Shown here in pieces: positions 24-16,092 of a stretch of DNA of 27,710 nucleotides (positions within the stretch are counted from its first letter, which is position 1; each line of letters opens with the position of its first letter). Under the pieces are notes generated by a model. That model was not told the origin of the DNA. It saw only the letters and a program-made list of their open reading frames with translations, and made no database searches. Location: the NCBI GenBank assembly GCA_031416315.1, contig JANOTL010000021.1, positions 1 to 27,710 of the forward strand. Direction: 5' to 3'. A program made the translations under genes and the position numbers. Origin of the DNA: Pseudomonadota bacterium (GTDB lineage Bacteria; Bdellovibrionota_B; Oligoflexia; Oligoflexales; CAIYRB01).

Positions 24-1517
24 TCAGTGCTTTGGCGCGAATGGCAGAAGGCGCTCGAAGTCTTCATCGGTCACCGCATTCGGCAGTTCCGTGAAGATCC
101 GTTCCAGATAGTCTTCCGGCTCGAGACCATTGGCGCGCGCCGTAACGACGATCGAGTAGAGCGCGGCGCTCGCGCGGGCGCCTTGAAGCGAGGCGCTGAA
201 GAGCCAAGCCTTGCGGCCTATGACGAATGGGCGGATGGAATTCTCGCAGGCGTTGTTGTCGATCGGAACGTCGCCGTCGCGCAGGCAGACAGTGAGCGCG
301 TCCCAGTCGTTGTCGGCATACTGGAGCGCACGTCCGACCGGAGTTTTTGGCGGAGTCGTCGCGAGTTTCTCGTCGAGAAACTGTCGGAACCGGTCGATGC
401 GCCACTTCGAATGTTTTTGCCGCATTGCAAGCGCGTCGGCCTCTTCGCCGCGGGCCCGTCGCATGGCGATGGCTCGCTCGACGCGGTAGAGGCTTTGAAT
501 CTTGAGCATCGCCTTTGCGGCGATCGGCGATTTCGCGGCGCCGCCCGCGATCTTTACGGCGTCGGCGAATTTTCGTCGTACATGCGCCCAGCATCCGGCG
601 CGCGTAGCGCCGGTTTCACGCGCAAATTTTGAGTATCCGTCGAAGTGGTCGGTGACGAGCGTGCCTTTGTAGCCTTTGAAGAGGCGTTCGACGACGCCGG
701 TATTCTTTACGGGATCATAGTCATAAAGAACGATGCGTTGGCCTGGCGCTTCCGAGAACGTGACCCACATGAAGCCCTTCTGCTGCGGGCGCCGACCTGG
801 CTCATTCAGCACTTGATGCGGCGTCTCGTCGCAGTGGACAATCGCACGATCGCGCGTGCGCCGCACGAGGCGTCCAACGAGCGGCGCCACGAGCTCGCCG
901 CATTTGATCATCCACGAAGCCATCGTGCCGCGATCCAGATCGACGCCGATTCTGCCCAGGATATCTTCCTGTCGATAGAGCGGGAGGCCGTCGCAGTATT
1001 TTGCCGTCGCGACGTGCGCGAGCAGGCTGGGACTCGCGATCGAACGCGGAATCGGTTGCTTTGGCATCTTCGCGGTCACGATCTTCTCGCCGCAACCGCG
1101 ACAGCCGTATTTCATGCGCTCGTGACGCTTGACGACGACTTTAGCCGGCACATATTCGAGTTGTTCCGTGACTTCAGCGCCGATCTCGTGCAACGCGTGG
1201 CCACACTGACAAACGCGCTCGGCTTCGGGGATCACATGTGAAATCGGCTCGCGCGGAATATCAAGCGAAAGGGTCGCGCGACGCGGTTGGTTCGTTTGCC
1301 TTTCGCGCCGAGTCGCTTTCGGCGGCGTCGGCTCGGTTTCGCCCGATTCCGACTCGGCTGGCGTCTCGAAGAGGAGGCGCATGGCTGTCAACGTCTCGCT
1401 CGACGACGCGAACCGCTTGCGCCGGAGATAGTCGACGAGCCGCTCAAGATCTTTGATTTCGCTCTTCAGACGAGCGATTTCCAGGTCTTTTTGATCGGTG
1501 ACGACTTCGATCGACAT
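24..1517 (-). CDS. tnpC: IS66 transposase TnpC (DDE)
   Basis: N-terminal leucine-zipper-like segment, CxCG...CxxC zinc finger, KYCDGLPLYRQ, HCDET, CWAHVRRKF, IDNNACENSIRP and GRKAWLF motifs; 497 aa. Confidence 0.96.
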   Translation of the reverse strand: MSIEVVTDQKDLEIARLKSEIKDLERLVDYLRRKRFASSSETLTAMRLLFETPAESESGETEPTPPKATRRERQTNQPRRATLSLDIPREPISHVIPEAERVCQCGHALHEIGAEVTEQLEYVPAKVVVKRHERMKYGCRGCGEKIVTAKMPKQPIPRSIASPSLLAHVATAKYCDGLPLYRQEDILGRIGVDLDRGTMASWMIKCGELVAPLVGRLVRRTRDRAIVHCDETPHQVLNEPGRRPQQKGFMWVTFSEAPGQRIVLYDYDPVKNTGVVERLFKGYKGTLVTDHFDGYSKFARETGATRAGCWAHVRRKFADAVKIAGGAAKSPIAAKAMLKIQSLYRVERAIAMRRARGEEADALAMRQKHSKWRIDRFRQFLDEKLATTPPKTPVGRALQYADNDWDALTVCLRDGDVPIDNNACENSIRPFVIGRKAWLFSASLQGARASAALYSIVVTARANGLEPEDYLERIFTELPNAVTDEDFERLLPFAPKH

Positions 1518-1548
1518 GAAGGCAAGGTAGCAGTTTCAAATTCCCTCG

Positions 1549-1902
1549 TCACCATCCGTCAACGAAATTTGCCGGGCGATGACGCTTCACTTTCGCAATG
1601 TCGATTCCGTCGAGGAGCCATTCGAACTCGATTGTCGACAGTGCGTGCACGAGGTCGCCAGCCTTTGGCCAAGGAAACCGGTCGCGCTCGAGGCGTTTGT
1701 AAGTCAGCGCGAGGCCGGTTTTGTCCCACCACAAGAGCTTTACGCGATCACGACGACGGCCAGCGAACGCGAACAAAAATCTGCCGTCGAGCGGCTGGCG
1801 AATCTCGTGCATTACGATCGCGGCGAGGCCGTCGAGGCTCTTGCGCATGTCGACCGGCGCCCGATGGAGAAAGACGCCCTCGAAAGATTGAATGGCCTTC
1901 AC
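1549..1902 (-). CDS. tnpB: IS66 accessory protein TnpB (Orf2)
   Basis: PVDMRKSLDGL, RRDRVKLLWWD and KRLERDRFPWP motifs. Likely GTG start at 1902 overlaps the tnpA stop (GTGA); the ORF track extends it to 2187. Confidence 0.92.
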   Translation of the reverse strand: MKAIQSFEGVFLHRAPVDMRKSLDGLAAIVMHEIRQPLDGRFLFAFAGRRRDRVKLLWWDKTGLALTYKRLERDRFPWPKAGDLVHALSTIEFEWLLDGIDIAKVKRHRPANFVDGW

Positions 1903-2219
1903 TGCGGCTGCGCCAGCGATCGAATCAGGATGCCGAGCTGGCTTGGATCGCAGTCGAGCGGCGCCTCGATTCGCAGCCCGCATGAAGTCTCGACCCGCAC
2001 TATCGCCGCGGACCGGGGCACGACGGGAACGAAGGCGCCGACATTCGACGGCCGGCCGGCTCGCCGCCGGCCGTGACCAAGGCGCCGGCGCCAATCTTTC
2101 AAAGACCACGGCGAAAGTTCCCGACGCTGGCAAAAGGCTACGATCGTCTCTCCGGACCGATCGAGCTCTTCCAAAATCCCGCGCCATTCCTCGGCGCCAC
2201 GCCGCTGCCGCTTCGCCAT
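1899..2219 (-). CDS. tnpA: IS66 TnpA (Orf1, HTH)
   Basis: EEWRGIL...SGETIVAFC...WRRRL...FVPV pattern; GGAGG RBS upstream; first gene inside the IS end. Confidence 0.88.
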   Translation of the reverse strand: MAKRQRRGAEEWRGILEELDRSGETIVAFCQRRELSPWSLKDWRRRLGHGRRRAGRPSNVGAFVPVVPRSAAIVRVETSCGLRIEAPLDCDPSQLGILIRSLAQPQ

Positions 2220-2348
2220 AACACGCCTCCTTCGATCGAGGCGCGGAAGCTAGCGGATCTCGGCGCTATCGGCTACGTGGGGCAGGCCGAGCGCTTACCT
2301 TGCTTGAACGAATCCCTGTAGGCCTCACTGAAGCCCTGTTTAGCTCTC

Positions 2349-2371
2349 CATTGTCCCTAATTTGTCCCTGC
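2349..2371 (+). repeat. Left copy of 23-bp direct repeat (tandem TTGTCCCT), putative integrase arm-type or att-associated site
   Basis: CATTGTCCCTAATTTGTCCCTGC; 21/23 identical to 11123-11145. Confidence 0.75.
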
Positions 2372-2695
2372 TTCCGAGTCTGCAAGCGTGCCTGCAAATC
2401 AATTCGTCGGCTCCGTCGTCAGCAATAAAGTTTTCAACTGATGCGTCGTTGGTTTCCAAATGGCCCGACGTCAGCATCGTAGTCATGCGATCCGCTGAGC
2501 CCGAGATGACACGGAGCAGAGTAGTAATGGTGCAAATTCAATTCGCCAGAAGCCGGCGAGCACGATCGCAAACGCCGTTCCTACGCCGACGACTCGGCAA
2601 GATTTACCCTGTAGTATTTGGTTCTTACGCTAATGCCGGGGCCCATTGAGCCGATGCAGTGACCATAGGAATAGGTCACGGACTCCGGAGTTCCA

Positions 2696-5374
2696 TTGGT
2701 CGGCTCACCCGCATCGCCACACACACCGCCGCGTAGCGAAGTCGGCGCCGGAATGCATCGCTTCACGCTGCGATTCGCCCCGGATCTGGAGCACCGCTAC
2801 CGGGAACAGCGTCTTAGCAATGACTTGAAGTTACTCCGTATCATCGCCACCCTCGCCTTTGGGCTTTCGCTTCTCATTTTCCTCTTGAGCTGGGTCGCCG
2901 TCGGTGCGGGCGTCATTCCCTCCGCCAACCGCTGGCTGCATTTCGGGGTCGTCGTCGCGCTGGGCTTGGGCTCGGTGTCGACTTTTCGCCCACAGTCGTA
3001 TCGAAGCATGGATCGTCGTAACGAATTGCTGTTGGGCGTCATCGCGATTCTATTGTTCTATTTCGAGCGAAACGTGACGGAGGCGGGCTACGTCCCCGTG
3101 CTTTGCATCTACTTCTTCACCCAGATCGCGATCTTCGCGCAGCCGTTCGTCTACATCGTGCGAGCGCGGGCCATCATCTTGACGACGATCCTCTTTTCGT
3201 TGGGAGCCTGGCTGGCGCAGCGTTATGCCGGGAAGGACGCGACGTATCTCTACATCCCCATTTTGTCCGGCGGTCCACTGACCCTGTTCTCGGCCTATAC
3301 CTACGAACGAATACAGCGCCTCGCTTTTCTCGCAGAAGCAGAAATCGTCCGCCAGCGCGCCCGCGTCGAAACCCTCCTCCACAGCATCATGCCGCCGGCC
3401 GTGGCCCATCGCTTGGGAGACGGCGTCAACCCTAACGAGGCCATCGTCGAGAGTTACGCGGCGGCGACCGTCCTCTTCGCCGACATCGTCGGCTTCACGA
3501 GCCTTTCGGCCTCGATGCCGCCGGAGCGCCTCGTCACCTTACTCAACTCGCTCTTCTCCCGCTTCGACGCCGCCGCCGTCCAATGCGGGGTTGAAAAGAT
3601 CAAAACGATCGGCGACGCTTACATGGCCGTCGCCGGCGTACCAACGGCGGCCGGAGACCACGCGCATCGGATGGCGGACTTTGCGTTCGAGCTACGCGAG
3701 GCGGTCCGCAAATTCTCGGCCATTAACCAGGTCGCCTTGAACGTCCGCATCGGCATGCACTGTGGTCCCGTCGTCGCCGGAGTGATCGGCACGACCCGCT
3801 TCCACTATGATCTGTGGGGCGAAACCGTGAAGGTCGCCTCCCAGCTCGAGTCCCATGGCATCAAGGGCGAAATCCAGATCTCTGACGCCATGCGACGCGC
3901 GCTCGGCCCCAACTATCACTTCGAGGGCCGCGGGCTCGTGGAGCTGAAGGACAGCGCCTCGCGACTCTTCATCCTCCGACGTCCGCTCACGCGTGACGAC
4001 GGCGTCGAGGGCGTCGAGGGCGGCACGGCGGCGGCCAACGGCACGCCGCAGCTGCCTGAAGCCGCTCATCAGGGCGCGCAGCCAGGACCCACCATCGCCA
4101 AGGCGCCGATCCATCCATTGACGCTGCGGTTTGCGCCAGGCGAGGAGTCGCAGTACCGCGACCATCGCTTCGCCGGCGATATGAAGGTCTACCGTACGAT
4201 TCTCCTGCTCAGTCTCGCGACGCTAGTGGCGGTCGCCATGGTATCCTTTGTCGCGATCGGTCGCGACTACCTAGGATCCGCTATCAATTGGTCGCACATT
4301 GGGCTGATAACCGGAGTCGGCGTCGCGGCGCTGTCCGCCTTCTACGCGGATCAGTCGTTCCGCGCCGCGGACCTTCGCTGCGAGGGCGCCTCCTTGGTCA
4401 TTTCGTTTGTCTACGGGGCGCTAGCGGCCTTTTCGCCATCCTTCAGCTACGCGGGCGCGATCGCGGGATATTTCGTGATCTTGTCGGGCTTTTACGCCTT
4501 GCCGATGATCTTCGCGATCCGCGCCCGAACCATGATCGTATTCACGATCGCCTTCCTCGCCGGTCTCTGGATCTCGCCGGGAGCCCAAGTCGAATTCGCA
4601 TCGATGATCAATCTCTTCATCGCGTCCGCAACCGGGCTCTATCTCTTCGTCGCCCACTCCTCAGAGCGCACGCAACGCAGCACGTACCTCGCCATCAACG
4701 AAACGACTCGGCAGCGCGCTCGCGCCAACACTCTCTTGCGCAACATCGTCCCCCCGAAAATCGCCGATCGCTTACGCGACCGCGAAGATCTCCAGGACGC
4801 GATCGTTCAGCGCTTCGAAACGGCCACGGTATTGTTCGCCGACCTCTCCGGCTTCACGCAGCTGGCTCGGACCATGGCGGCCGAGGACCTCGTGGCCATG
4901 CTGAACGCGCTTTGCTCCCAAATCGATCTGGCGGCGCTTCGCCACGGCGTCGAGAAGATCAAGACCATCGGCTACACCTACATGGCGGTCGCGGGCGTTC
5001 CGGATCCGACGGTCGATCACGTGCAGCGTATGGCGGATTTCGCCTTGGAGGTCCGCGAGCTCGTGCACGATTTTTCGGCAAAAAAAGGGATTCGTCTGCG
5101 CGCCAAAATCGGCATGCACTGCGGTCCGGTCGTCGCCGGAGTGATCGGAACAACGCGTTTTCACTATGACCTCTGGGGCGAGACGGTCAACACCGCCTCG
5201 CGCCTCGAGTCCCACGGCGTCGAAAACGCCATTCAGATTTCCGCCGCGGTCCGACAGGCGCTGGGCGACCGATACGAATACTCCGATCGCGGCATGATTC
5301 CGTTGAAGGGTATGCAACCGACGCAGTTGCACATCCTCACCGGATCGCGATCAACGAGCATCGCTGCCGCATAG
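2696..5374 (+). CDS. Membrane class III adenylate cyclase with two tandem 6TM+catalytic units (pseudo-heterodimer)
   Basis: Two FAD(I/L)xGFT...EKIKTIG...IGMHCGPVVAGVIG...YDLWGETV domains, each preceded by about six hydrophobic segments. Lys/Asp substrate residues indicate ATP. Start is TTG 2696 (GGAG upstream) or ATG 2753. Confidence 0.92.
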   Translation: MVGSPASPHTPPRSEVGAGMHRFTLRFAPDLEHRYREQRLSNDLKLLRIIATLAFGLSLLIFLLSWVAVGAGVIPSANRWLHFGVVVALGLGSVSTFRPQSYRSMDRRNELLLGVIAILLFYFERNVTEAGYVPVLCIYFFTQIAIFAQPFVYIVRARAIILTTILFSLGAWLAQRYAGKDATYLYIPILSGGPLTLFSAYTYERIQRLAFLAEAEIVRQRARVETLLHSIMPPAVAHRLGDGVNPNEAIVESYAAATVLFADIVGFTSLSASMPPERLVTLLNSLFSRFDAAAVQCGVEKIKTIGDAYMAVAGVPTAAGDHAHRMADFAFELREAVRKFSAINQVALNVRIGMHCGPVVAGVIGTTRFHYDLWGETVKVASQLESHGIKGEIQISDAMRRALGPNYHFEGRGLVELKDSASRLFILRRPLTRDDGVEGVEGGTAAANGTPQLPEAAHQGAQPGPTIAKAPIHPLTLRFAPGEESQYRDHRFAGDMKVYRTILLLSLATLVAVAMVSFVAIGRDYLGSAINWSHIGLITGVGVAALSAFYADQSFRAADLRCEGASLVISFVYGALAAFSPSFSYAGAIAGYFVILSGFYALPMIFAIRARTMIVFTIAFLAGLWISPGAQVEFASMINLFIASATGLYLFVAHSSERTQRSTYLAINETTRQRARANTLLRNIVPPKIADRLRDREDLQDAIVQRFETATVLFADLSGFTQLARTMAAEDLVAMLNALCSQIDLAALRHGVEKIKTIGYTYMAVAGVPDPTVDHVQRMADFALEVRELVHDFSAKKGIRLRAKIGMHCGPVVAGVIGTTRFHYDLWGETVNTASRLESHGVENAIQISAAVRQALGDRYEYSDRGMIPLKGMQPTQLHILTGSRSTSIAAA

Positions 5375-5646
5375 GCGCGATAGCTATGCGAACATCTCGA
5401 GGTCTTCTGGCGTCCGCCACTCGAACTTCCGCAAGCCGAAGCTCGCGAACATCTCCTCGCAATTAGCCTGGCTCAGCGACTTCGTCCCGATCGTTGCGGC
5501 CGCTTTGTCGCGAAAGCGCTCCTCGGAGGTCCCAGCCGTTTCGAGCCCCTCGCAGTGTGAGCCCCGCGACCGTCGTTGCGACCATGTCGACGTCAATGGG
5601 CTTGGCGACGTGATCGCAAGCAGCTGAGATTGTACCTGCTGCGATG

Positions 5647-6636
5647 CTATCGAATCTGGCCACTTCCCCCCGATCCAAAGTGCTTCTTCACGTTGACTGC
5701 TTTCCACTGGAGCGCAGGAAACTCGCGTATTTTGCTGAGCATCGTCTCGTCGGTTGTTAGCAACTCGGGCGCGATGTCGCCGCGGTCATTGAGGCGCGAA
5801 ATGAACTCGCGCTCTTCCGCCGTCAGCGGAAGAACCCGCGACAGAAGCGCGCGGCACTCGGCTACTAGCTCGGCGCTCCATGCCGCTATCGCCTTCGCGT
5901 CAGCAAAGTGCTTCATTCGCAGTACCGGCACGAGTTGGCTCGCAAGCTCGGCGGGATCCACATCCACGGCATCGGGCGAAATGGAGCGCCAGTCCTTGCG
6001 GCTTGCGGCACCATAAATTGTGAACGCGAGTCGAAGCTTCTGCGGGTCCAAGTCGGCGCGCCTGAGAAGCTCGCGCGCATCAAAGACGTCGCGGCTCGCC
6101 TGTCGTGATAGCAGCGCTGCGAGTTTGCCGCCAGCAAGCTCGTGCAGGTCAATTATGGGAACCCCTCGGGCCTGGAACATGCCGACCTGGCGTGAATCGC
6201 AAGTAGTCACGGGCCAGAGCGGAGTGCGGAGGAGGAAGTTCAGATCGAGCTCGAGGTTTCCAGACGCGCCAACATCGTTGACGTAACCAAGGCGCCACTT
6301 ACCACCCGCGTGCTCTGACGGTGTCCGTCGAATGTTTAACCCTTCGCGACTACAGACGGCTTCGATGGCTTGCTCGACCTTCGGACGCTCCGCAAGCATT
6401 CGCTCGCGATCAGCAGTGCCAACGTAGTTGAGGTCGATGTCAACAGATAGACGGGGAACGTCGAAGACGAAGAGATTGAGCGCCGTCCCGCCTTTAAGCG
6501 CGATCCTCCCTTGCAGGTAGGGATGGCGCAACAAGGCTGAGAGCAAATTGACTAGGCGAAGTGTTTTTTCCAGGGCGATGGGCGGAAAGCCCGTCTGCGC
6601 CGCCTCGCGTACAATGATGTCGCGTGTGATCATCAT
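5647..6636 (-). CDS. abiEii: AbiEii/AbiGii-family nucleotidyltransferase toxin (type IV TA)
   Basis: LKGGTALNLF...PRLSVDIDL, KLAAL, SRDVFD motifs. Start overlaps the stop of the upstream antitoxin gene (ATGA). Confidence 0.9.
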   Translation of the reverse strand: MMITRDIIVREAAQTGFPPIALEKTLRLVNLLSALLRHPYLQGRIALKGGTALNLFVFDVPRLSVDIDLNYVGTADRERMLAERPKVEQAIEAVCSREGLNIRRTPSEHAGGKWRLGYVNDVGASGNLELDLNFLLRTPLWPVTTCDSRQVGMFQARGVPIIDLHELAGGKLAALLSRQASRDVFDARELLRRADLDPQKLRLAFTIYGAASRKDWRSISPDAVDVDPAELASQLVPVLRMKHFADAKAIAAWSAELVAECRALLSRVLPLTAEEREFISRLNDRGDIAPELLTTDETMLSKIREFPALQWKAVNVKKHFGSGGSGQIR

Positions 6637-7460
6637 CCGGCGAATTCCTCCCAGGAGCGAGAAAGAACGCGCTCAGGAACGATGAGATTCCAGCCTGCGA
6701 CGAGTTTGCCGGGCTCCCTTCGGCGCTCGATGTAGAGCGGACGCGATGGCGCATGGCGACGCAGGGGTGCCAGATGCTTCTCGTCGAGCATCAACTGATC
6801 TCGATGCTGATCGAGGTAGAAACCGACGCGCGCAACAGTGAGGGATGTTCCGAGCATTAAGGCGTACTCAGTGACCGCATCGATATCGACGTATTCGATG
6901 CTTTCCAGCGAGCGCCAGATTTCCTCGAGACCGCCACCGTGCTTCGGCATGTCGAGGACATCGACGAGCGTGCGCTCAAGCGACGTAACCCGAACCGTAC
7001 CGCCAGCTCGATCGACCTCAATGACGCCACCGCCTGCGTCAGGCAGGTCTTGTAGGGGGGCGGGGAATTGTACCGGGACAAAATCGGTTCCTTGAAAGCG
7101 GAACGAGCGACCGCGCGTTCGCGCGAGATAGGTGACCCGGCTCCTGACCGAATAGGCTTTGCCGTGAAACTCGAGAGCGCTGTGGTAGGCAACGACCGAG
7201 TCCGGTGCAAGCTTTGCTGCCAGGAGGTAAGGATCGACAACTGCGCGCCCTCGCTCCTCCTCGCGATTAACGACCGCGTATAGCCCGCGCCGAACGCGCA
7301 ACAGGCGCCCCGTTTTCACATGCTGAGCAAGAACGTTGCTAGTCGTGTGCTCGCTCCGCGAGCCGTCGCCGGCGTGGGCAGCTAGAAACTCTTCATGGCG
7401 AAACACTGGGTTGCGCGCAAAGAAGGTCGTTGGTCGTTCATTTGGCCGTTTTGCATCCAT
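6633..7460 (-). CDS. abiEi: AbiEi-family antitoxin / transcriptional regulator
   Basis: N-terminal wHTH-like LLRVRRGLY, AYHSALEFHG, VTSLERTLVD, ARVGFYLD. Start placed at ATG 7460 (MDAKRP) rather than 7577 because the extension runs through an AT-rich promoter-like region. Confidence 0.88.
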   Translation of the reverse strand: MDAKRPNERPTTFFARNPVFRHEEFLAAHAGDGSRSEHTTSNVLAQHVKTGRLLRVRRGLYAVVNREEERGRAVVDPYLLAAKLAPDSVVAYHSALEFHGKAYSVRSRVTYLARTRGRSFRFQGTDFVPVQFPAPLQDLPDAGGGVIEVDRAGGTVRVTSLERTLVDVLDMPKHGGGLEEIWRSLESIEYVDIDAVTEYALMLGTSLTVARVGFYLDQHRDQLMLDEKHLAPLRRHAPSRPLYIERRREPGKLVAGWNLIVPERVLSRSWEEFAG

Positions 7461-7497
7461 AGCACTATATAATATAGTTGTTGGGATCCAAAACGGC
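7445..7497. promoter_or_regulatory. Long inverted repeat over the abiEi start/promoter; putative AbiEi operator
   Basis: GCCGTTTTGCATCC (7445-7458) and GGATCCAAAACGGC (7484-7497) pair 13/14; inner ACTATAT-A-ATATAGT (7464-7478) is perfect; both are centred on 7471. Confidence 0.7.
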
Positions 7498-8331
7498 AAG
7501 CCTGGGCGTGACTGCTGGGCAGCGACACAACTAAAAATCATGAATAATAATGAATGGTTATATATCCATTTGCGCATGACTAAGCGGCCGGTAGCCCCGC
7601 TCGCAAGATGAATCCCCGGTTCGAGCCTAAGTCCGGGTCAAGCCGCGCAGCACGAGACCGGGAGCGTCTCACTCCACCGCGGCGCTCTCTCGCCCCTTCA
7701 TTCGCGTTCCTGCGCGCGATCGGCGTACTTGTGACGCTCGCCGTCATTGCCGAGCGCCTCGCCGTGCGTCTGGCGAGCCACGCCCAGTAGGCGCGGCCAT
7801 GCGGCTCAAGGTTGAGCCGCACCCTTTCGGCCGTGCGTGTAACTGAGCACGCCGCGAACAAAATCGGGCTTCGGCGTGCCCGAATATGGTCATTCCGAGC
7901 CAAAATCGGCCCCAAAAACTCGTGGCGGGTCCTTAGTTGACCCACCGCGATCTGCGATCCCACAGTCAGAAATTCTCTGATTCAAACAAAATCATGCAGC
8001 TAGCGTCGATGCTTTCAGAAAACGACCGCAGCAAGTTCGCCGCGAAAATCGTGGCACGACTTTCGCAATGTATGAGTATCAGTGATGCTTCACGACAAAT
8101 CGAGTTCATGCTTCGCAATTGGGCACGAACACCGTGTACTCGACGCAGGCCGATCCAAGCACGACACCGTCTTCGGAGAAGTCTTGAGAAACAAGAGCAG
8201 CGGCATCGCATTGTCTCCGGGTGCCCTTTCAGCAGAGGAACGCTCTGACGGTCGTAGCCGGCGTCGGCTACGCCGTTCGCTCAAATGGCGAACGTCGCGA
8301 GTGCGAGCAGCAACGTCATCGAGCGGGGGCA

Positions 8332-8410
8332 GCGTCCAGCTTCTGGACGCGTTGGGGGTCGCAGACCACCAAATAAAATCCGGGGTGGGCACCACACCCC
8401 ATGCTTGCGT
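8332..8410 (+). other. Candidate origin of transfer (oriT, MOBP-like)
   Basis: Three consecutive hairpins (8332-8350, 8352-8372, 8382-8400) followed directly by ATGCTTGC, resembling MOBP-type nic sites; about 200 bp upstream of mobC. Confidence 0.55.
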
Positions 8411-8602
8411 GAAACTCCGGCCGGCCCTCCAAATGCATAAAAAAGTAGCAAATCAAAGAAATCAAAACAGAACACATCAGCAAAAAACATCAACCAACAA
8501 CGCCACTACAAAACACAAATCCACCAAACCGAGGCAGTCAGAAACCAAGTCCCCAAAACAGCCACACAAAACCCCAAACACCATCACCAACCGGAGAACC
8601 GC

Positions 8603-8938
8603 ATGAATCCATCCCGACTCAATCGCAGTCATCTCCGCTTTAGCGCCGAAGAATATGCACGCCTCGTTGAAGATGCCAGAGTCTACGGCGATTCGATCCC
8701 AAATCTGATCAAGGCCATTTACTTCAAAAAGAAGCTGCCGCAACCGGCCATGAGCAAGGATGACGCCGACCGCGTTCTCGTCGCGCTCAATCGCATCGGC
8801 AACAACATCAACCAGATTGCACGGCAGTTGAACGCTGGTTTCCGCGAAGGTTTCAATCCGGCGGTGCAGGAAATGGCGGAATCGCTGCGCGCGATCAAGA
8901 CCTTCATCCTGGGCTATCGTGGCAACGGTCAAAATTAG
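8603..8938 (+). CDS. mobC: Plasmid mobilization relaxosome protein MobC
   Basis: LNRIGNNINQIARQLN signature, N-terminal RHH-like LRFSAEEY, GGAG RBS. Confidence 0.9.
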   Translation: MNPSRLNRSHLRFSAEEYARLVEDARVYGDSIPNLIKAIYFKKKLPQPAMSKDDADRVLVALNRIGNNINQIARQLNAGFREGFNPAVQEMAESLRAIKTFILGYRGNGQN

Positions 8939-9137
8939 TTTCGTCAAGCATCGCCGACATCAACGGCAACAGTCGCCCCCTGACTCTGGAACAACACTTC
9001 AGAGAGATTCAGCGAAAGTTCACCTCATTCTACATCCCCAAAGAGAGCCAGCTCAGGGAGCACGACGCAAAGCGCAAGACAGTCGGAATGCTGACTGGCA
9101 ATCGAGCAGACGCCGAGCATGCGGGGAGACTCTTTAG
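8919..9137 (+). pseudogene. Probable relaxase N-terminal stub (remainder deleted)
   Basis: GTG start overlapping the end of mobC; MATVKISFVK resembles MOBP relaxase N-termini; the rest of the 72-aa ORF has no Tyr and no 3H motif. Confidence 0.45.
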
Positions 9138-9327
9138 AAGCGGACAGGCCCAAGTTGACCATAGCGGCGTGGTTCGCCTCTTTGCGATGGAGGACCAAGG
9201 CGGGGCGCCAGAGTTCGTCGAACGAAGCGACAAGACATGGTCGCAAGAGAAGGTCGAAACGTTCAAGGACGCGTTCTTCGCGGTCGCATCTGGCAGGAAG
9301 AAGGCAACCGTTTATAAGGAGATGGAA

Positions 9328-9717
9328 ATGGAACAGGTGACCACGTCGAAAGCGAGCAAAGCGAAGGCGGCCACGATCTCAACCGCGGGTTTGCGGGTGA
9401 AACGCGAGACGAAAAAGCGCGTCATGCAGGAGCTGGCAAGGATCAATGAGAAGGAATTCGGAAAGCGTGTCAAAGCGGACGACTTGATCGTTCTTGCACT
9501 GTCTCTCGTGGAGGCCAAGCACATCGACGAGCTGCAAACGCGGTCGCTTTCCAATGCTGATCGATTGGAGCAGCAGTATCGCGACCACTCCAAGGCACAC
9601 GGACACATCACAAAGGATGCGTTCTTGGGCAGACTTCTGAACCACGAAATTGCATCACCTTCACAACCAACTTCGAGCTCAAAGAAACCACTCGGTGATC
9701 CTGTCGCGGACCGCTGA
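9328..9717 (+). CDS. Hypothetical basic protein, possibly RHH-like DNA-binding
   Basis: AAGGAG RBS (9316-9321) 6 nt before ATG 9328; LRVKRETKKRVMQEL strand-helix pattern; directly upstream of xis-int. The ORF track allows an extension to 9088. Confidence 0.65.
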   Translation: MEQVTTSKASKAKAATISTAGLRVKRETKKRVMQELARINEKEFGKRVKADDLIVLALSLVEAKHIDELQTRSLSNADRLEQQYRDHSKAHGHITKDAFLGRLLNHEIASPSQPTSSSKKPLGDPVADR

Positions 9718-9735
9718 TCGTGCACAAATGCACGG

Positions 9736-9753
9736 CAAAATCCATGGATTTTG
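9736..9753. promoter_or_regulatory. Perfect 18-bp palindrome upstream of xis-int; putative operator
   Basis: CAAAATCCATGGATTTTG, a few nt before the GGAGG RBS of the excisionase. Confidence 0.5.
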
Positions 9754-9771
9754 AAGCGGAGGAATGCTACC

Positions 9772-10005
9772 ATGACGACGTCTTCAATTGGGGCGTTGCC
9801 CCAGCCAGGACAGACGATCTTTGAAAACTTAATAGGTGACGACCGGCTTTTGAGCTACGCGGAAGTAGCTCGGCGGATGGGAGTTTCCATCCACACGGTG
9901 CGTGGCTGGGTCTACCAGCGGAAGATACCGTTTTTGAAAGCCGGCAAATCAGTGAGGTTTATATGGGCTGACGTCTTGCAGTGGCTCCAAAAGAATGGAG
10001 CGTGA
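9772..10005 (+). CDS. Excisionase-family HTH protein (HTH_17-like)
   Basis: LLSYAEVARRMGVSIHTVRGWVYQRKIPFLKAGKSVRF; GGAGG RBS; ends 3 bp before the integrase start. Confidence 0.85.
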   Translation: MTTSSIGALPQPGQTIFENLIGDDRLLSYAEVARRMGVSIHTVRGWVYQRKIPFLKAGKSVRFIWADVLQWLQKNGA

Positions 10006-10008
10006 GAC

Positions 10009-11121
10009 ATGGCCCACAAGACTGCAAATGGGACGTGGCGAGTTCAGTGGCGAGAGAATCGCCGGATGATGTCGAGGATTTTCCCTGCTGGCACGCCGAA
10101 GTCCTCTATCGACAAATTCGAAGCCGAAATTCGGCTCGGACTTGTTAACGCGACGCAAGAGAAACGGTGCCCGACGTTCTCTGACTACGCTGCGAGATGG
10201 ATCGAGCACTATGCAAAGATCCATAAGGCGGCAAGTACAGTTCTCAAGGATCGGCAGATCCTGCGGGATCACTTGATTCCAGTTCTCGGTTCAAAGAAGC
10301 TTCTCGAGGTCAAACGGAAGGATATCCGCGACCTCAAGACCCAACTTTGCAACGAGAAGGGCTTCGCTGCTCAGACTGTGAACAACATCCTCGGATTGGT
10401 TCACAAAATCTTTGACGGCGCGGTCAGCGAAGATGAGCTGATCCCGATGAATCCGGTTTCCGGCGTCAAGCGAGTCCAATCAGTGCGGCGTCAGTTCAAG
10501 TTTTGGACCTTCGAAGAGAAGGACAGGTTCTTGAGCTACTGCCGCACCGAAAATTGGGAGCTATTTCAGATCGTCGCGCTAGCTACTGAAACTGGGTTGC
10601 GTCCGATGGAGATCAAGGGCCTTCAGCGGGACTGCTTGGACTTCGAGAACGGTGAGGTCATCGTCCGCCGCAATTGGTGTACGAAGACCAATCAGCTCAA
10701 TCCGTATACGAAGACTAAGCGGGATCGAAAGGTGCCCATGAGTCCTGCTCTCTTCCAGATCCTCGCGGACAAGCGCTTTCTGCCCGCAGACGCATTCGTA
10801 TTCCAAGGAGTCACGAATTCGTTCGGGGCGATGAAGCTTCAGCCGATGGCGATCCAGGCGAGCGTGACGCCGATTCGGTTCCATGATTTACGGCACACGT
10901 TCGCCTCGCACTTGGCAATGCGCGGAGTGCCGATGATCAAGGTCATGGATCTACTCGGGCACACGAAAATGGACTCGACTCTGATCTATGCCCACCTGGC
11001 GCCGAGCTCCCTCAGAGGGATCACCGACGTCCTTTCCGGTGGAGCTGGATGGACGCGGTCGCTACCTGGGGAGGTAGTCCCGCTCGCAAAACGTGAGGCC
11101 AATGCATCAGCAGTCATCTGA
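10009..11121 (+). CDS. Site-specific tyrosine recombinase / phage-type integrase
   Basis: TGLRPME, TKTK, HDLRHTFAS, LLGH and IYAH catalytic motifs (R-K-H-R-H-Y all present); N-terminal beta-rich arm-binding-like segment. Confidence 0.95.
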   Translation: MAHKTANGTWRVQWRENRRMMSRIFPAGTPKSSIDKFEAEIRLGLVNATQEKRCPTFSDYAARWIEHYAKIHKAASTVLKDRQILRDHLIPVLGSKKLLEVKRKDIRDLKTQLCNEKGFAAQTVNNILGLVHKIFDGAVSEDELIPMNPVSGVKRVQSVRRQFKFWTFEEKDRFLSYCRTENWELFQIVALATETGLRPMEIKGLQRDCLDFENGEVIVRRNWCTKTNQLNPYTKTKRDRKVPMSPALFQILADKRFLPADAFVFQGVTNSFGAMKLQPMAIQASVTPIRFHDLRHTFASHLAMRGVPMIKVMDLLGHTKMDSTLIYAHLAPSSLRGITDVLSGGAGWTRSLPGEVVPLAKREANASAVI

Positions 11122-11122
11122 T

Positions 11123-11145
11123 CATTGTCCCTGTTTTGTCCCTGC
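11123..11145 (+). repeat. Right copy of 23-bp direct repeat (tandem TTGTCCCT)
   Basis: CATTGTCCCTGTTTTGTCCCTGC, immediately after the integrase stop. Confidence 0.75.
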
Positions 11146-11663: not shown

Positions 11664-13190
11664 ATGTGTGGAATGAGTCGTGTCATGGTCGAAAGCGAGT
11701 TTTTCGCGGCACTGTTCGAGCGCTCCGAGACGGGGCTCATCATCCTAGACGACGCGCGACGACCACTTTCGGTCAATCCGGTCGCTGCGAGCTATCTGAC
11801 GACGTCGGTCGAAGAAGCGGCCACACAACCGATCGAGGCGTCCCTGGCGCTTTGCGGTGACGCCCCGCCGCAGTGGGCAAGCATCTCGACGCAAACCAAA
11901 AGCGGCGGGATCATCACGATCGAGGCTCCGGGTGCGCGACGGCTCGACCTGGAATTTTTGGCCTTCGCGAGTCTTTCTCCCGGCCGGCACTTGCTGACAC
12001 TTCGCGACGTCACGACGTGCGACGACACGCGGCGCCGCGCCCTTGAAGAGGGCTTGCGCCAAGCCGGGAAAATGGAGGCACTCGGACAATTGGCCGGCGG
12101 CGTCGCCCACGACTTTGCGAACCTGCTCACCGTCATCATCGGGAATAGTGAGCTCTTGCTCCAAAGGACGCCGCCAGATTCCCCCGCCGTGGCGAAGCTC
12201 AACGTGATCAAGCAGGCGGGACAACAGGCGACCTCGCTCGTCCGTCACTTGCTGACGTTCAGCCGAAAACAGAGCATCGACCCGATCGTTCTGAATCTCA
12301 ACGACCAGGTCGCCAAGACCGAGGGCCTCCTTCGTCGCGTCATCGGCGAAAACATCCGGGTCGTTTGCCAGCTCGATCCTGGGATCGAGCGAATCAAGGC
12401 GGATTCAGGCCAGGTCGCACAAGTCCTCATGAATCTCGTGATCAACGCTCGCGATGCCATGCCCAACGGCGGCCAGGTCACGATCGAGACCGCAAATGCC
12501 GAGGTGGCGGAAGCCATCGTCGGCGGGCGAACCGAGGTCTTTCCCGGAAAATATGTGACCATGAGCGTGACCGATACGGGCGACGGCATGGACCAGGCCA
12601 CGATGGCCCGGCTTTTCGAACCTTTCTTCACGACGAAATCGCCGGACAAAGGCACGGGCCTCGGATTGGCCATCGTCTACGGTGCGCTCAAGCAAGTCGG
12701 AGGCAGCATCACCGTGCGGAGCGCGTTGGGCCAAGGGACGACCTTCAAGCTGTTTTTTCCGATCACGCTGGAGGTGATCACTCCAGCTGCGCCCAAAGTC
12801 GCCGGAGCTCGGTCCAGGACGCCGATGGCTACGATCCTGCTGGTAGAGGACGACGCCCCCCTGCTCGGCTTGGTCGCCGAGATGTTGCGATCAAAGGGCT
12901 ACGCGGTCCTATCCGCGCCGGGCGGCAACGAAGCGCTCGCGGTCGCCGACGCCCACGGCGCCCCCGTGCACTTGCTCGTAAGCGACATCGTCATGCCCGA
13001 AATGTCGGGTCATGAGCTGGCTCGACGAATGCAGACGCGACAGCCGCAGTGCCGCGTTCTCTTCTTGACCGGCTACCCTCGCAGCCACACGGACGAGCCC
13101 GGCGCCGGGACAGCGCGGGGGCCGACGCTTCTCAAGCCGTTTGCGGCCGAGACGCTCACGCAGATGGTGGGAGACATTCTCGGTGCATGA
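11664..13190 (+). CDS. Cytoplasmic hybrid sensor histidine kinase (PAS-like, HisKA, HATPase, REC; CckA-like architecture)
   Basis: H-box GGVAHDFANLL, N-box NLVINARDAM, G1 DTGDGM, F-box FEPFFTTK, G2 GTGLGL, receiver LLVEDD...SDIVMP...LKP. True start may be ATG 11673 or 11685. Confidence 0.93.
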   Translation: MCGMSRVMVESEFFAALFERSETGLIILDDARRPLSVNPVAASYLTTSVEEAATQPIEASLALCGDAPPQWASISTQTKSGGIITIEAPGARRLDLEFLAFASLSPGRHLLTLRDVTTCDDTRRRALEEGLRQAGKMEALGQLAGGVAHDFANLLTVIIGNSELLLQRTPPDSPAVAKLNVIKQAGQQATSLVRHLLTFSRKQSIDPIVLNLNDQVAKTEGLLRRVIGENIRVVCQLDPGIERIKADSGQVAQVLMNLVINARDAMPNGGQVTIETANAEVAEAIVGGRTEVFPGKYVTMSVTDTGDGMDQATMARLFEPFFTTKSPDKGTGLGLAIVYGALKQVGGSITVRSALGQGTTFKLFFPITLEVITPAAPKVAGARSRTPMATILLVEDDAPLLGLVAEMLRSKGYAVLSAPGGNEALAVADAHGAPVHLLVSDIVMPEMSGHELARRMQTRQPQCRVLFLTGYPRSHTDEPGAGTARGPTLLKPFAAETLTQMVGDILGA

Positions 13191-13311
13191 CGACGCTTTG
13201 TCACCCGATGCGAGCTCGTAAAAGTTTTGTCGGCCCCATTCCAAGGCAGTAGCATGGGTCAAACGGACACACTTAGGAATCGATTCGCCCGTCGGCGGTG
13301 AGGATGAAATC

Positions 13312-14148
13312 GTGATTCGGTGGTGCTCATACTGCCAAGAATTCGTCGGCGAAACGGCGCCGTTCGACGACTTCTCATTGACGCACGGCATTTGCCCAGG
13401 CTGTGCCAGTCGCGGCTTTGCCGCTCTGGCCGGGCTCGTGGAGCGCGGCACGCAGATCGCTGAATTCTACGCCTCCTTACGCAAGCAAGCGGCTACGGGC
13501 GAGCTTCTCGACGTTGACCAGACGATTCACGAAGCCGAGGTCGACCTGGGGATTCGCTCGTTCGACCTCTTCGTCGGGATGATTCAGCCGCTGCTCTACG
13601 AGGTCGGAAAGCTTTGGGCCGAGGGGAAAGTGACCGTCGCGATCGAGCACCAGTTCACGGCGTTCGCCGAAGGAATTCTCGAGCAGATGTCGAAACGCAT
13701 GGCGACGAAAACCGGACTCGAAGCTCCGACGCACGCCGGCGTGCTTCTGGTTTGCGCCGGCGGCAACTATCATACGGTTGGCGTCCGAGCGTTAAACCTC
13801 GCTCTGCGAGACGCTGGGATCGCGTCGCGCGCACTTTTTCCTGGATTGCCGCCCCGAGACATCGTCGACGCCGTTCGACGCTTTAGGCCCCGCGCTCTGG
13901 GCGTCTCCGTCTCGCTGCCGACGCAGGTGCCGGAGGTTCAGCTCGTCCTCGAGCTCCTTCGACAGGAGCCGATTATACGTCCTGAGCTGATCGTGGTCGG
14001 CGGCGTCGCCTCGAAGAGTCCAGATTGGACGTTAGATGGGCTGTTAGGTGTCGAACCGGCGCCGAACGATTTACAAAGTACGGTGGAGCTGTTTCGTCGT
14101 GGCGTCTGCGCCAGCGGCGAAAATTCGCAAACGCCGTCATCTGGCTGA
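13312..14148 (+). CDS. Cobalamin-binding protein (CarH-type helical cap plus Rossmann domain) with N-terminal CxxC...HxxCxxC finger
   Basis: W102-x9-E112-H113 motif, NYHTVG (xHxxG), GVSVS and VVGG B12-binding motifs; N-terminal WCSYC...THGICPGC. Confidence 0.85.
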   Translation: MIRWCSYCQEFVGETAPFDDFSLTHGICPGCASRGFAALAGLVERGTQIAEFYASLRKQAATGELLDVDQTIHEAEVDLGIRSFDLFVGMIQPLLYEVGKLWAEGKVTVAIEHQFTAFAEGILEQMSKRMATKTGLEAPTHAGVLLVCAGGNYHTVGVRALNLALRDAGIASRALFPGLPPRDIVDAVRRFRPRALGVSVSLPTQVPEVQLVLELLRQEPIIRPELIVVGGVASKSPDWTLDGLLGVEPAPNDLQSTVELFRRGVCASGENSQTPSSG

Positions 14149-14156
14149 GGTTCGTT

Positions 14157-14921
14157 ATGGCAGCTCCTTGCAAAGCGCTGGACACCGAACTCGTCGTACT
14201 TCTCGTCGACGACGAGCGCGATCTGCGTGAAGCGATCGCGCACGACATACACTTGCGCGGCGCGACCGTTCTCGAAGCGGATGGGGTCGACTCGGCTCTC
14301 GCCGTGCTCGCCGAGCGCAAGGTCGACGTCATCGTGACCGACGTCCGCATGCCCAAGCGCAACGGCCTCGATCTGCTGGCGACCGTTCGGCGTGGACAAG
14401 GCGATCAGCCCGCCGTCGTTCTCATGAGCGGGTTTGCGGAGATCCCCCTTTGGGACGCCTACGATCGGGGCGCGGATGCGTTCTTCGGCAAACCGTTTCT
14501 TCCAGAAGCCCTATTCGACCGCGTCCGACGACTGGCGCGGCCGAGCGCGCAGAATTGGTCCGTCGATCCCGGTCCAGCGGCCGCAGAGGTGAACCTAACA
14601 TTTCCCAACGGTGAGGTCGTAGCCGGCGCCACTGGCTTCACCATTGGGCGAGGCGGAATGTTTCTCGGTCTGATGCGTCGCGACCTCAGGGTCGGCGTGC
14701 TCATAGGATTCAAGCTCACGGTCGGTGACGCTCCCACCGCCCTGCAGGGCAAGGGCCTCGTTCGATGGGTGCGGAACCTTCCGGAAAGCGGTCTCGCGCC
14801 CGGTTGCGGCGTCGAGTTCTCGTTCCTAGAGCCCGACATATGCGCGCGCTTGAGCGAGCGGCTCGCGAAAACGAGGCCGCTCGCGTTCATCCCCAAAGGT
14901 CCTAAGCTCGCGACGCCGTAG
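14157..14921 (+). CDS. Response regulator with C-terminal PilZ-like domain
   Basis: LLVDDE...VTDVRMP...MSG...GKPF receiver; IGRGGMF...GLVRWVR...GCGVEF PilZ-like barrel. GAGG RBS before ATG 14157. Confidence 0.85.
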   Translation: MAAPCKALDTELVVLLVDDERDLREAIAHDIHLRGATVLEADGVDSALAVLAERKVDVIVTDVRMPKRNGLDLLATVRRGQGDQPAVVLMSGFAEIPLWDAYDRGADAFFGKPFLPEALFDRVRRLARPSAQNWSVDPGPAAAEVNLTFPNGEVVAGATGFTIGRGGMFLGLMRRDLRVGVLIGFKLTVGDAPTALQGKGLVRWVRNLPESGLAPGCGVEFSFLEPDICARLSERLAKTRPLAFIPKGPKLATP

Positions 14922-16092
14922 CGCGAGCTTTGGCGAGAGTCGCCACTACCGCGGCGTTGAAGGCGCCGCTGAACTGAGCCGGCGCACCGAGCCAAGCCGT
15001 CAAACTCTCGACGGCATTGGGGACGCCGTCGCGCTCGTCGCATACTGCCCCGGCGATGAGCCGGCCCGCGTCGACGCTCGCCCCACCTCCGACTCCCGCA
15101 AGCGCATCGAATTCGACGGCCATCGCCGCCATGGCGTCGTCGCCGAGCCAAGCGCGACGCTTCTTGCTCAACACCTCGGCGGCCTCCTCGAGCACGCGAT
15201 AAGAAGTCTCGTTTTCCGGCACCGAGCGCACGAGCTCGAAGCACAGCGTTCGCAAATGCGCCTCGAGGATGAGGCGAGGCATGCCCCGCGCGGCGAGCAC
15301 GCGTCCAAGCCAAAGAACCTGCGAGACCGCGGCGGCTCGCGGCGCGCGCGTCAACGTGACCAGCCAAACGCTGTCGCTCGTCGTGAAGCGGCGCCCGCGC
15401 TCTCCGTAGCGGCTCTTCAGGTACGGAAACTCATCCCAACTCGCGCGTCCTGCGGCGAGGGCGGCCTCGATCTCGCGGGGATCGCTCGTGACCGGATGCA
15501 TCCCCGCCTCAGGATTGAAGGAGCTCGCCAGGGGGCGCACCGACTCTTGCCGCAAGGGAAGAAGCGACTCGTAAATGCGAATCAAGGCCGCGTAAGTCTC
15601 GCAGGCTGTATCGAGCACCGCCTCGCGTTCTTCGGCTGCCAACTCGAGGCCGTCGAGCTTCGCGCAAGTCTCGACCCATGTCCTCGAGCCGGGTCGCGGC
15701 GCCGCATCGCGCTTCGAGCTTTCCAGAGCGTAGAGATTTCCGAGCCAAGAACGCGCCAGTTTGCCGGAGCGCCGGCATCGGATCTGAACAGCTAAGCTCA
15801 GCGCAGCGTCGAGCGCGTCCTCGCAATCGGCGGTCGTCGCGTGGCGAAGCTGTTCAAGGTCCTCGAGCAGATGCGGCAGGCGCCCCATCGAGGCATGCCA
15901 CAAAGCCTCCGCGCCGGGAGACGCCGCGGTCTCGAGAGCCGCGTGAATCACGGCAAGCGAGCGCAGATACGAAACGAAGCCCTGCAACTCGAGACCCCCG
16001 GACGCGAGGGCCGCCGCGAATGCGGTCGCATTCAGGCGCTCGTGGAGGTCTCGAGTCCGTTGGTGCAGCTGGCCGGTCAGAGTCAGGGACAC
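14902..16092 (-). CDS. Heme oxygenase-like domain fused to a helical (globin/bilin-binding-like) C-terminal domain
   Basis: LHQRTRDLHERL (proximal His motif), YLRSLAVIHAALE, LEDL, LYALESS; C-terminal RYGERGRRF...WLGRVLAARGMP. Confidence 0.78.
   Translation of the reverse strand: MSLTLTGQLHQRTRDLHERLNATAFAAALASGGLELQGFVSYLRSLAVIHAALETAASPGAEALWHASMGRLPHLLEDLEQLRHATTADCEDALDAALSLAVQIRCRRSGKLARSWLGNLYALESSKRDAAPRPGSRTWVETCAKLDGLELAAEEREAVLDTACETYAALIRIYESLLPLRQESVRPLASSFNPEAGMHPVTSDPREIEAALAAGRASWDEFPYLKSRYGERGRRFTTSDSVWLVTLTRAPRAAAVSQVLWLGRVLAARGMPRLILEAHLRTLCFELVRSVPENETSYRVLEEAAEVLSKKRRAWLGDDAMAAMAVEFDALAGVGGGASVDAGRLIAGAVCDERDGVPNAVESLTAWLGAPAQFSGAFNAAVVATLAKARATASRA

Follow-up and report, generated by a model that had tools for sequence, protein, structure and literature searches.

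A fused two-unit membrane adenylate cyclase gene in a bacterial genome, with one complete and one degenerate predicted catalytic site

The window analyzed here, a 27,710-bp stretch that is the whole of contig JANOTL010000021.1 (C21) of a bacterial assembly (6.36 Mb, 65% GC), carries at 2696-5374 a gene for a class IIIa adenylate cyclase in which two complete membrane cyclase units are fused into one chain. The residue inventory and a structure model indicate that this protein probably makes cyclic AMP (cAMP) from ATP at a single site shared intramolecularly by C1 and C2, its pair of catalytic domains, with the mirror-image site degenerate. Mammalian membrane cyclases have the same design and the same polarity, which the bacterial family likely reached independently, as judged from its trees.

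The frame is uninterrupted for 892 codons from TTG 2696, which has GGAG 7 nt upstream, and Pfam recognizes two PF00211 stretches in the protein (E 1e-105, 351 bits), in keeping with the two cyclase domains claimed by a first-pass annotation made from the DNA letters. The twelve residues that the annotation had named or implied, D263, K303, D307, D372, K379 and Q383 in C1 and D716, K756, Y760, D825, N832 and R836 in C2, all stand at those positions. The canonical residues in Table 1 of PMC6005667 are Asp396, Asp440 and Arg484 of C1 and Lys938, Asp1018, Asn1025, Arg1029 and Lys1065 of C2. The intact composite site has all eight of these positions filled, by D263, D307 and R351 from C1 and by K756, D825, N832, R836 and K871 from C2, and includes the Lys + Asp pair that specifies adenine rather than guanine. 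K871 we take to be the counterpart of Lys1065, on an assumption about which Lys of KGKG that residue is. The mirror site has lost four (D to Y760, R to K804, N to K379 and R to Q383); it draws K303, D372 and the degenerate K379, Q383 and D419 from C1 and D716 and the degenerate Y760 and K804 from C2. K418 is also retained there, and the Gly of the KG loop after it has become D419. The losses listed by the annotation were right as far as they went, but its list was incomplete, lacking R to K804 (with R351 kept in C1) and Gly to D419 in the same dead site. Neither half is complete, the residue sets reading DD/KDKQ in C1 and DY/KDNR in C2. The sites were compared with 120 single-domain proteins chosen for an intact DD/KDNR set, of which 99% have Arg at the position of R351.

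A laboratory precedent exists for such complementation. The D300A and R376A mutants of Rv1625c are each inactive alone and form an active dimer together (PMC4821796, section 7, for Guo 2001). The protein described here resembles that engineered heterodimer in that one partner is without the second metal Asp and the other without the catalytic Arg; it differs in that the engineered partners are mutants of identical monomers, whereas here the pairing is natural and covalent and the membrane halves have diverged. Going by motif and by our assumed match of the numbering, D300A presumably corresponds to Y760 of C2 and R376A to Q383 of C1. Four lines of evidence support the annotation's proposal that the chain forms a pseudo-heterodimer with itself, one site being complete and the other degenerate: the residues, their conservation in the family, the fit to human AC9 and this precedent.

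An AlphaFold model built on an 87-row alignment (predicted local distance difference test [pLDDT] 83.9, predicted template modeling score [pTM] 0.80) has six long helices ahead of each catalytic domain and a disordered linker, and it closes C1 on C2 within the single chain. The expectation of 12 hydrophobic helices, six per half, holds in this model, whereas hydropathy gives only about four and six clear segments. The top seven Foldseek matches of the model are full-length AC5, AC9 and AC8. On superposition with AC9, which the annotation had proposed, the soluble part made up of the paired helical and catalytic domains matches it to 2.3 Å (424 residues); for the membrane part and the 12-helix domain of human AC9 the values are 3.8 Å over 381 residues and Z 27.0. 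An SxL/MP-type center, a motif of the helical domain or cyclase-transducing element described in PMC9552081, precedes each catalytic domain (SIMPP at 230, NIVPP at 683), where the model has helices. C1 and C2, 1359 bp apart, are 59% identical in protein and 69% in DNA, and the two membrane bundles are 34% identical.

Two further members of the family bear on whether these features are real and maintained. A paralog in the same genome (P0003; contig C153:64728-66581, minus strand) is 61% identical and 5'-truncated, having lost bundle 1 together with the strand that bears the first Asp; it has the same order of C1, second membrane bundle (TM2) and C2 and keeps K379 (AAA vs AAG), Q383, Y760 and K804. 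It starts about 140 bp after a tRNA-Ser(GCT) gene and is followed downstream by the remnant of an IS66 and by a thiolase-like frame that is split. The third sequence, P0280, is a 253-aa fragment found in another assembly; it shares 63-64% identity with each of the other two and retains D716, Y760, T761, K804 and the K/D/N/R set, and five intact-site positions of C2 are retained in 3/3 family sequences. The substitutions are not read errors, because the paralog shares them (its residues there are K, Q, Y and K) and the third fragment shares those of C2 (Y and K); this is also the extent of their conservation in homologs, C1 and C2 in the paralog and C2 in the fragment. The paralog pair, at a synonymous divergence (dS) of 1.0-1.5, is under purifying selection, with a ratio of nonsynonymous to synonymous divergence (dN/dS) of about 0.2 (0.16 in C1, 0.24 in TM2 and 0.21 in C2), and the chance of K379, Q383 and Y760 all surviving neutral drift over this distance is 0.001-0.002. 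An allele about 96-97% identical was present, in pieces, in contigs from three runs (X2, X3 and X4) of a second study. It keeps T at 4973 (Y760), the total minus other-letter depth being equal to the allele contig depth in all three runs, and its codons 379 and 383 show no change among the 20 of 23 differences listed for the covering contig. Of the 39 listed differences between allele and cyclase gene, 21 are synonymous and 15 nonsynonymous codons, for which neutrality predicts about 1 to 3. No RNA data set containing the gene was listed, a result that does not bear on its expression.

The origin of the fusion was approached with trees. In a 140-row FastTree from which the six catalytic columns had been removed, all four catalytic domains from the two paralogs fall together (0.99), the C1 domains joining each other and the C2 domains likewise; the sister of this clade is an intact six-transmembrane (6TM) monomer of the same genome, C121 (0.918). 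The likely order of events, as far as the trees indicate, is that a bacterial monomer was duplicated and fused, one site was then lost and the fused gene was finally duplicated. The label "mammalian-type" would thus hold for design but not for descent, the halves coming from a bacterial duplication.

Several observations count against this account. A single full-length copy is known, apart from its close allele; two sequences document the C1 lesions, and the third member is C2-only. The degenerate residues, which appear to be constrained, are conserved no better than the whole domains (about 70% identity, at which five matches occur about 1 time in 6), and a special constraint beyond that of the domains is not demonstrated. 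That all four losses fall in one site has by itself a chance of 0.077. The whole-chain fit of the model to AC9 is loose (7.5-8.6 Å), and the alignment behind the model is rich in eukaryote-like tandems, such that the likeness to AC9 is partly built in. A 67-row IQ-TREE quick tree gave the four-domain clade 98 in the Shimodaira-Hasegawa-like approximate likelihood ratio test (SH-aLRT) and did not firmly recover C121 as its sister. Finally, approximately unbiased (AU) tests on 36 rows, one of them named as animal (P0050) and the others grouped by motif and tree, did not reject the single constraints of C1 with animal-type C1 (p 0.09), C2 with animal-type C2 (p 0.10) or all together (p 0.25).

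These single-group tests leave some room for a eukaryotic membrane cyclase acquired by horizontal transfer, or for a non-bacterial contig, as do the domain order and polarity of AC1-9, the TIGxTY and KIG motifs shared by C2 and the good scores of some protist tandems with little-diverged halves (Diphylleia, Entosiphon). Against transfer stand the 59% and 34% identity of the halves, the 20-24% whole-chain identity to solved mammalian cyclases and the grouping of the four domains apart from animal and sampled protist domains. The neighbors are bacterial (IS66, AbiE, integrase, histidine kinase and KefC), and the gene's GC content at third codon positions (GC3), 0.79, does not stand out in a genome whose median is 0.81. 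Transfer of an animal enzyme is disfavored because it requires C1 to group with animal C1 and C2 with animal C2 at once, and this joint constraint was rejected (p-AU 0.0125); an animal source is largely refuted by this test, and we regard the explanation as a whole as highly improbable. An artefact of assembly or sequencing, creating either the fusion or the substitutions, deserves still less credence and can practically be set aside. The assembly is metagenomic, the two similar catalytic domains lie close together, and none of the listed contig pieces spans the whole gene; against this, the domains share only 69% of their DNA letters, a source-like contig covers 3746-4972 without any difference, a second-study contig crosses the C1-TM2 linker (3791-4284) in frame with a 9-base in-frame deletion as its sole change, and the paralog shows the same order and lesions on a different contig.

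Two functional alternatives are unlikely, and about equally so. One is that the gene encodes a pseudo-enzyme or is decaying, its product folding and perhaps binding ATP and making little or no cAMP, like a single-chain cyclase-like protein of Pseudomonas. The structure of that protein (PDB 6yii, titled class III cyclase-like ATP-binding protein) aligns with the model over both domains (Z 27.7, 363 residues), and the protein is, we presume, inactive. C2 also departs from consensus elsewhere (F to C740, F to I743, KGKG to KGMQ), the paralog is truncated and the cyclase gene sits among mobile-element genes. Decay is hard to square with the filling of all eight intact-site positions in the full-length copy, the five C2 positions held throughout the family, the low dN/dS and the excess of synonymous codons in the allele. 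The other alternative has the halves acting mainly in trans or with other cyclases, or the second site keeping real activity. The genome offers partners, since 21 of its open frames carry a total of 23 class III domains and several of these frames encode intact 6TM monomers; the second site retains D716, K303 and D372; and the paralog's C1 remnant evolved about three times faster than C1 of the cyclase gene, its C2 not faster, as if TM2-C2 had kept a role alone; the paralog is a candidate pseudogene or C2-only partner subunit. That rate difference is significant with C2 outgroups (p 0.02-0.04) but not with a monomer outgroup (p 0.42), the model shuts C1 on C2 in one chain, and the second site has neither its second metal Asp nor its catalytic Arg, either of which losses kills Rv1625c according to section 7 of PMC4821796. 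A Pycsar pyrimidine cyclase (PycC) was also considered and judged unlikely: the neighbors, IS66 and AbiE, include no adjacent effector with a cyclic nucleoside monophosphate (cNMP) domain, and the PycC profile scores 103 bits vs 351 for PF00211.

In the mechanism that we consider most likely, one chain would fold as a C1-C2 pseudo-heterodimer and convert ATP to cAMP, with its two six-helix bundles packed as an asymmetric 12-helix unit. Signals would reach the catalytic dimer by way of the paired helical domains, probably upon binding of a membrane-soluble ligand; the membrane bundles of related enzymes are described as lipid receptors (PMC12505454). The source genome has 15 matches to cNMP-binding domains, which could read the cAMP. 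The dead pocket would be retained by selection, most likely as a structural plug, with Tyr760 at the metal position and Lys379 possibly pairing with D716, and we favor such a plug over a ligand site. The allosteric second pocket suggested by the first-pass annotation found no support; Tyr760 and Lys379 may simply fill the pocket. The annotation's prediction that D716 is dispensable looks doubtful, this residue being kept in 3/3 family sequences and perhaps needed. A bolder scenario, which we offer tentatively and consider more apt to fail than to hold, is that bacteria repeatedly re-ran the origin of the mammalian membrane cyclase, the family described here being a young and independent fusion that arrived at the mammalian split in its own right; the conserved Tyr/Lys/Asp pocket would then be a true regulatory site that corresponds in bacteria to the forskolin site, and the unlike bundles would make up an asymmetric receptor. 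The stages that can be cited for it are adjacent intact duplicates (L028/L029), fused intact forms (P0004/P0005/P0135), a split complementary pair (L026) and fused forms of reversed polarity (P0012/P0014/P0134).

The family is very rare. A protein search over lengths of 490-1561 aa returned one close match, the paralog, among 8000 candidates scored, and a search at shorter lengths returned one family fragment, P0280, among the 120 matches listed. None of 72,556 plasmid records covers 80% of the query, and a JGI metagenome scan gave none of this cyclase family among the at least 9 loci listed. Within the order, where 95 genomes were covered and up to 9 candidates were scored in each, the fused gene was found only in the source genome; the same-genus genome is 82% complete, which makes its absence there weak. 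Exact matches to KTIGYTYM are present in 1 of the 131 genomes from the phylum and in 0 viral contigs. A profile search of 1.84 billion representatives yielded, among the best 150, 28 single-domain proteins (405-453 aa), 3 compact tandems (P0003, P0134 and P0135) and 119 others, whose length, inserts and motifs led us to class them as eukaryotic as a group rather than one by one. The three compact tandems branch among bacterial-type monomers. Counting P0004, P0005, P0012 and P0014 as well, there were probably about five separate fusions of bacterial origin, an origin that for these four and for P0134 and P0135 is judged from tree position and compact size. Three of the roughly five have both sites intact and one has reversed polarity (C2 without N and R); the family at 2696-5374 is the only one with mammalian polarity and has lesions in both halves. 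A genome scan for the reversed-polarity family brought up one weak unrelated locus.

Other paired and tandem cyclases came to light in these searches. P0004, P0005 and P0135 are fused membrane cyclases with both sites intact that occupy different parts of the tree among probable bacterial monomers, P0005 being without the first bundle. Locus L026 (4542-7222) holds an adjacent complementary pair, NG/KDNR followed by DD/TDRG, in which the downstream member groups with the C2 domains of a fused MASE8 family (P0012/P0014/P0134) and the first lies near the C1 of that family; pair and family are one lineage in split and in fused form, of polarity opposite to that of mammals. Two adjacent, separate and intact 6TM cyclase genes, an unfused stage, occur within the same order at L028 (G076, 1171-3747) and at L029 (G077). 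The source genome has adjacent 6TM cyclase genes at C115:44606-47427 (+), HS/KDNR with both metal Asp gone and then DD/KDTR. They are a candidate two-gene heterodimer; monomers often have T for N while retaining the Arg, so the second gene may work alone. The protist 12-helix cyclases (P0006-P0011 and P0132) have twin sites that are nearly or fully intact (DD/KDNR + DD/KDNK in Diphylleia; both in Entosiphon), and the eukaryote-like tandems other than these two include both polarities.

Among known systems, AC1-9 (solved structures: AC5 8sl4, AC8 8buz, AC9 6r3q/9u3r) share with the bacterial protein the single chain of 6TM-helical-C1-6TM-helical-C2, the Asp pair and Arg supplied by C1, the Lys, Asp, Asn and Arg supplied by C2 and one dead pseudo-symmetric site. 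The two differ in their apparently separate origins, the bacterial halves being still similar to each other, and in the dead site itself, where the first metal Asp survives in the bacterial C2 (AC5 and AC9 have Ser) and Tyr760 occupies the second-Asp position (Ser in AC5, Ala in AC9). Ser at this second position of animal C2 belongs to the forskolin pocket. The bacterial protein also has a short linker, nearly no N- or C-terminal tails and no PF16214 match. Neither a G-protein system nor regulation by Gs-alpha would be expected in a bacterium. Each half is in itself like a Rv1625c/Cya-type 6TM class IIIa monomer (MASE7/MASE8-linked, 400-470 aa), with a TLRF-type start and catalytic domains 45-50% identical to those of many monomers; the fusion differs in being twice the size and asymmetric, with one site rather than two per dimer. 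Human soluble adenylyl cyclase (sAC) and 6yii from Pseudomonas aeruginosa likewise join two class III domains in one chain as a pseudo-heterodimer, without membrane bundles and at 15-17% identity, and the fused protein has the class IIIa Asp (D372, D825), not Thr. They set a precedent for the joining of cyclase domains by bacteria. Thr occupies the adenine-specifying position in sAC-like cyclases. The sAC-like cyclases of Chloroflexus reportedly have a tandem layout as well, in work said to be by Kobayashi in 2004.

In its passage on the subject, PMC9552081 (Schultz 2022) calls a fused dimeric class III cyclase unknown in bacteria, and the corresponding section of PMC4821796 treats the bacterial enzymes as homodimerizing monomers. 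The former statement is too broad for soluble enzymes, as 6yii from Pseudomonas aligns over both domains, and the present cyclase would add a membrane-bound counterexample to that passage, together with the mammalian pattern of catalytic loss. No bacterial 12-helix fused cyclase is described in the literature searched, outside which lies the main bioinformatic survey (Bassler 2018), which could mention such proteins, and term searches in the accessible text of PMC9433096, PMC2447327 (part of the text), PMC3085406 and PMC11006738 gave no bacterial 12-helix case. The halves are similar enough for each change to be traced, and the protein offers a compact, G-protein-free model for asking why one site was given up, whether a dead site turns regulatory and whether unlike bundles alter ligand sensing. 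Its importance is limited by the rarity of the family and by the soluble bacterial tandem already on record (6yii).

Table 1. Coordinates of the cyclase gene, its parts and the flanking repeats in the 27,710-bp window
Feature	Coordinates	Strand	Basis or remark
Left copy of 23-bp direct repeat	2349..2371	+	Core pattern found at two places in genome, this one and 11123-11145
Fused two-unit class IIIa adenylate cyclase gene	2696..5374	+	892 aa (TTG) or 873 aa (alternative start ATG 2753)
Membrane bundle 1, six helices in model, TLRF motif at start	2753..3310 (borders approximate)	+	Hydropathy, AlphaFold, AC9 fit
Helical domain / cyclase-transducing element 1, SIMPP at residue 230	3311..3445	+	Model, alignment; weak HNOBA match
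C1 catalytic domain	3446..3985	+	Residue inventory; roles per PMC6005667 Table 1
Flexible linker, ~45 aa, low pLDDT	3986..4117	+	29% identity to paralog's linker; length varies in frame among other samples
Membrane bundle 2, six helices	4118..4675 (borders approximate)	+	34% identical to bundle 1, 54% to paralog's bundle
Helical domain / cyclase-transducing element 2, NIVPP at residue 683	4676..4804	+	Model, alignment
C2 catalytic domain	4805..5350	+	Residue inventory
Right copy of 23-bp direct repeat	11123..11145	+	Directly after integrase stop codon

The repeats listed in Table 1 bound an 8.8-kb segment (2349-11145) that contains, besides the cyclase gene, AbiEii/AbiEi (5647-7577), MobC (8603-8938), an excisionase-like helix-turn-helix protein (9751-10005) and a tyrosine integrase (10009-11121). 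The repeat is a possible mobile-element end, and the cyclase may be cargo of an integrative element. A contig of X2/X3 links 5651 with 11196, a joint of low confidence whose shorter side has 38 letters; it suggests a strain with the cyclase and without those genes. Upstream of the cyclase gene, at 1-2300, lies IS66 (tnpA, tnpB, tnpC), of which an 86%-identical copy is found on C36; the X2/X3 contigs fit only from 2298 rightwards, suggesting that IS66 is absent there. Promoter and terminator scans gave chance level only, and no tRNA genes were found in the 27,710-bp window. Farther right, at 11664-16092, genes for a hybrid histidine kinase, a response regulator and two further proteins, one with a B12-binding domain and one whose N-terminal domain is heme-oxygenase-like, stand together, a cluster possibly devoted to light or redox signaling.

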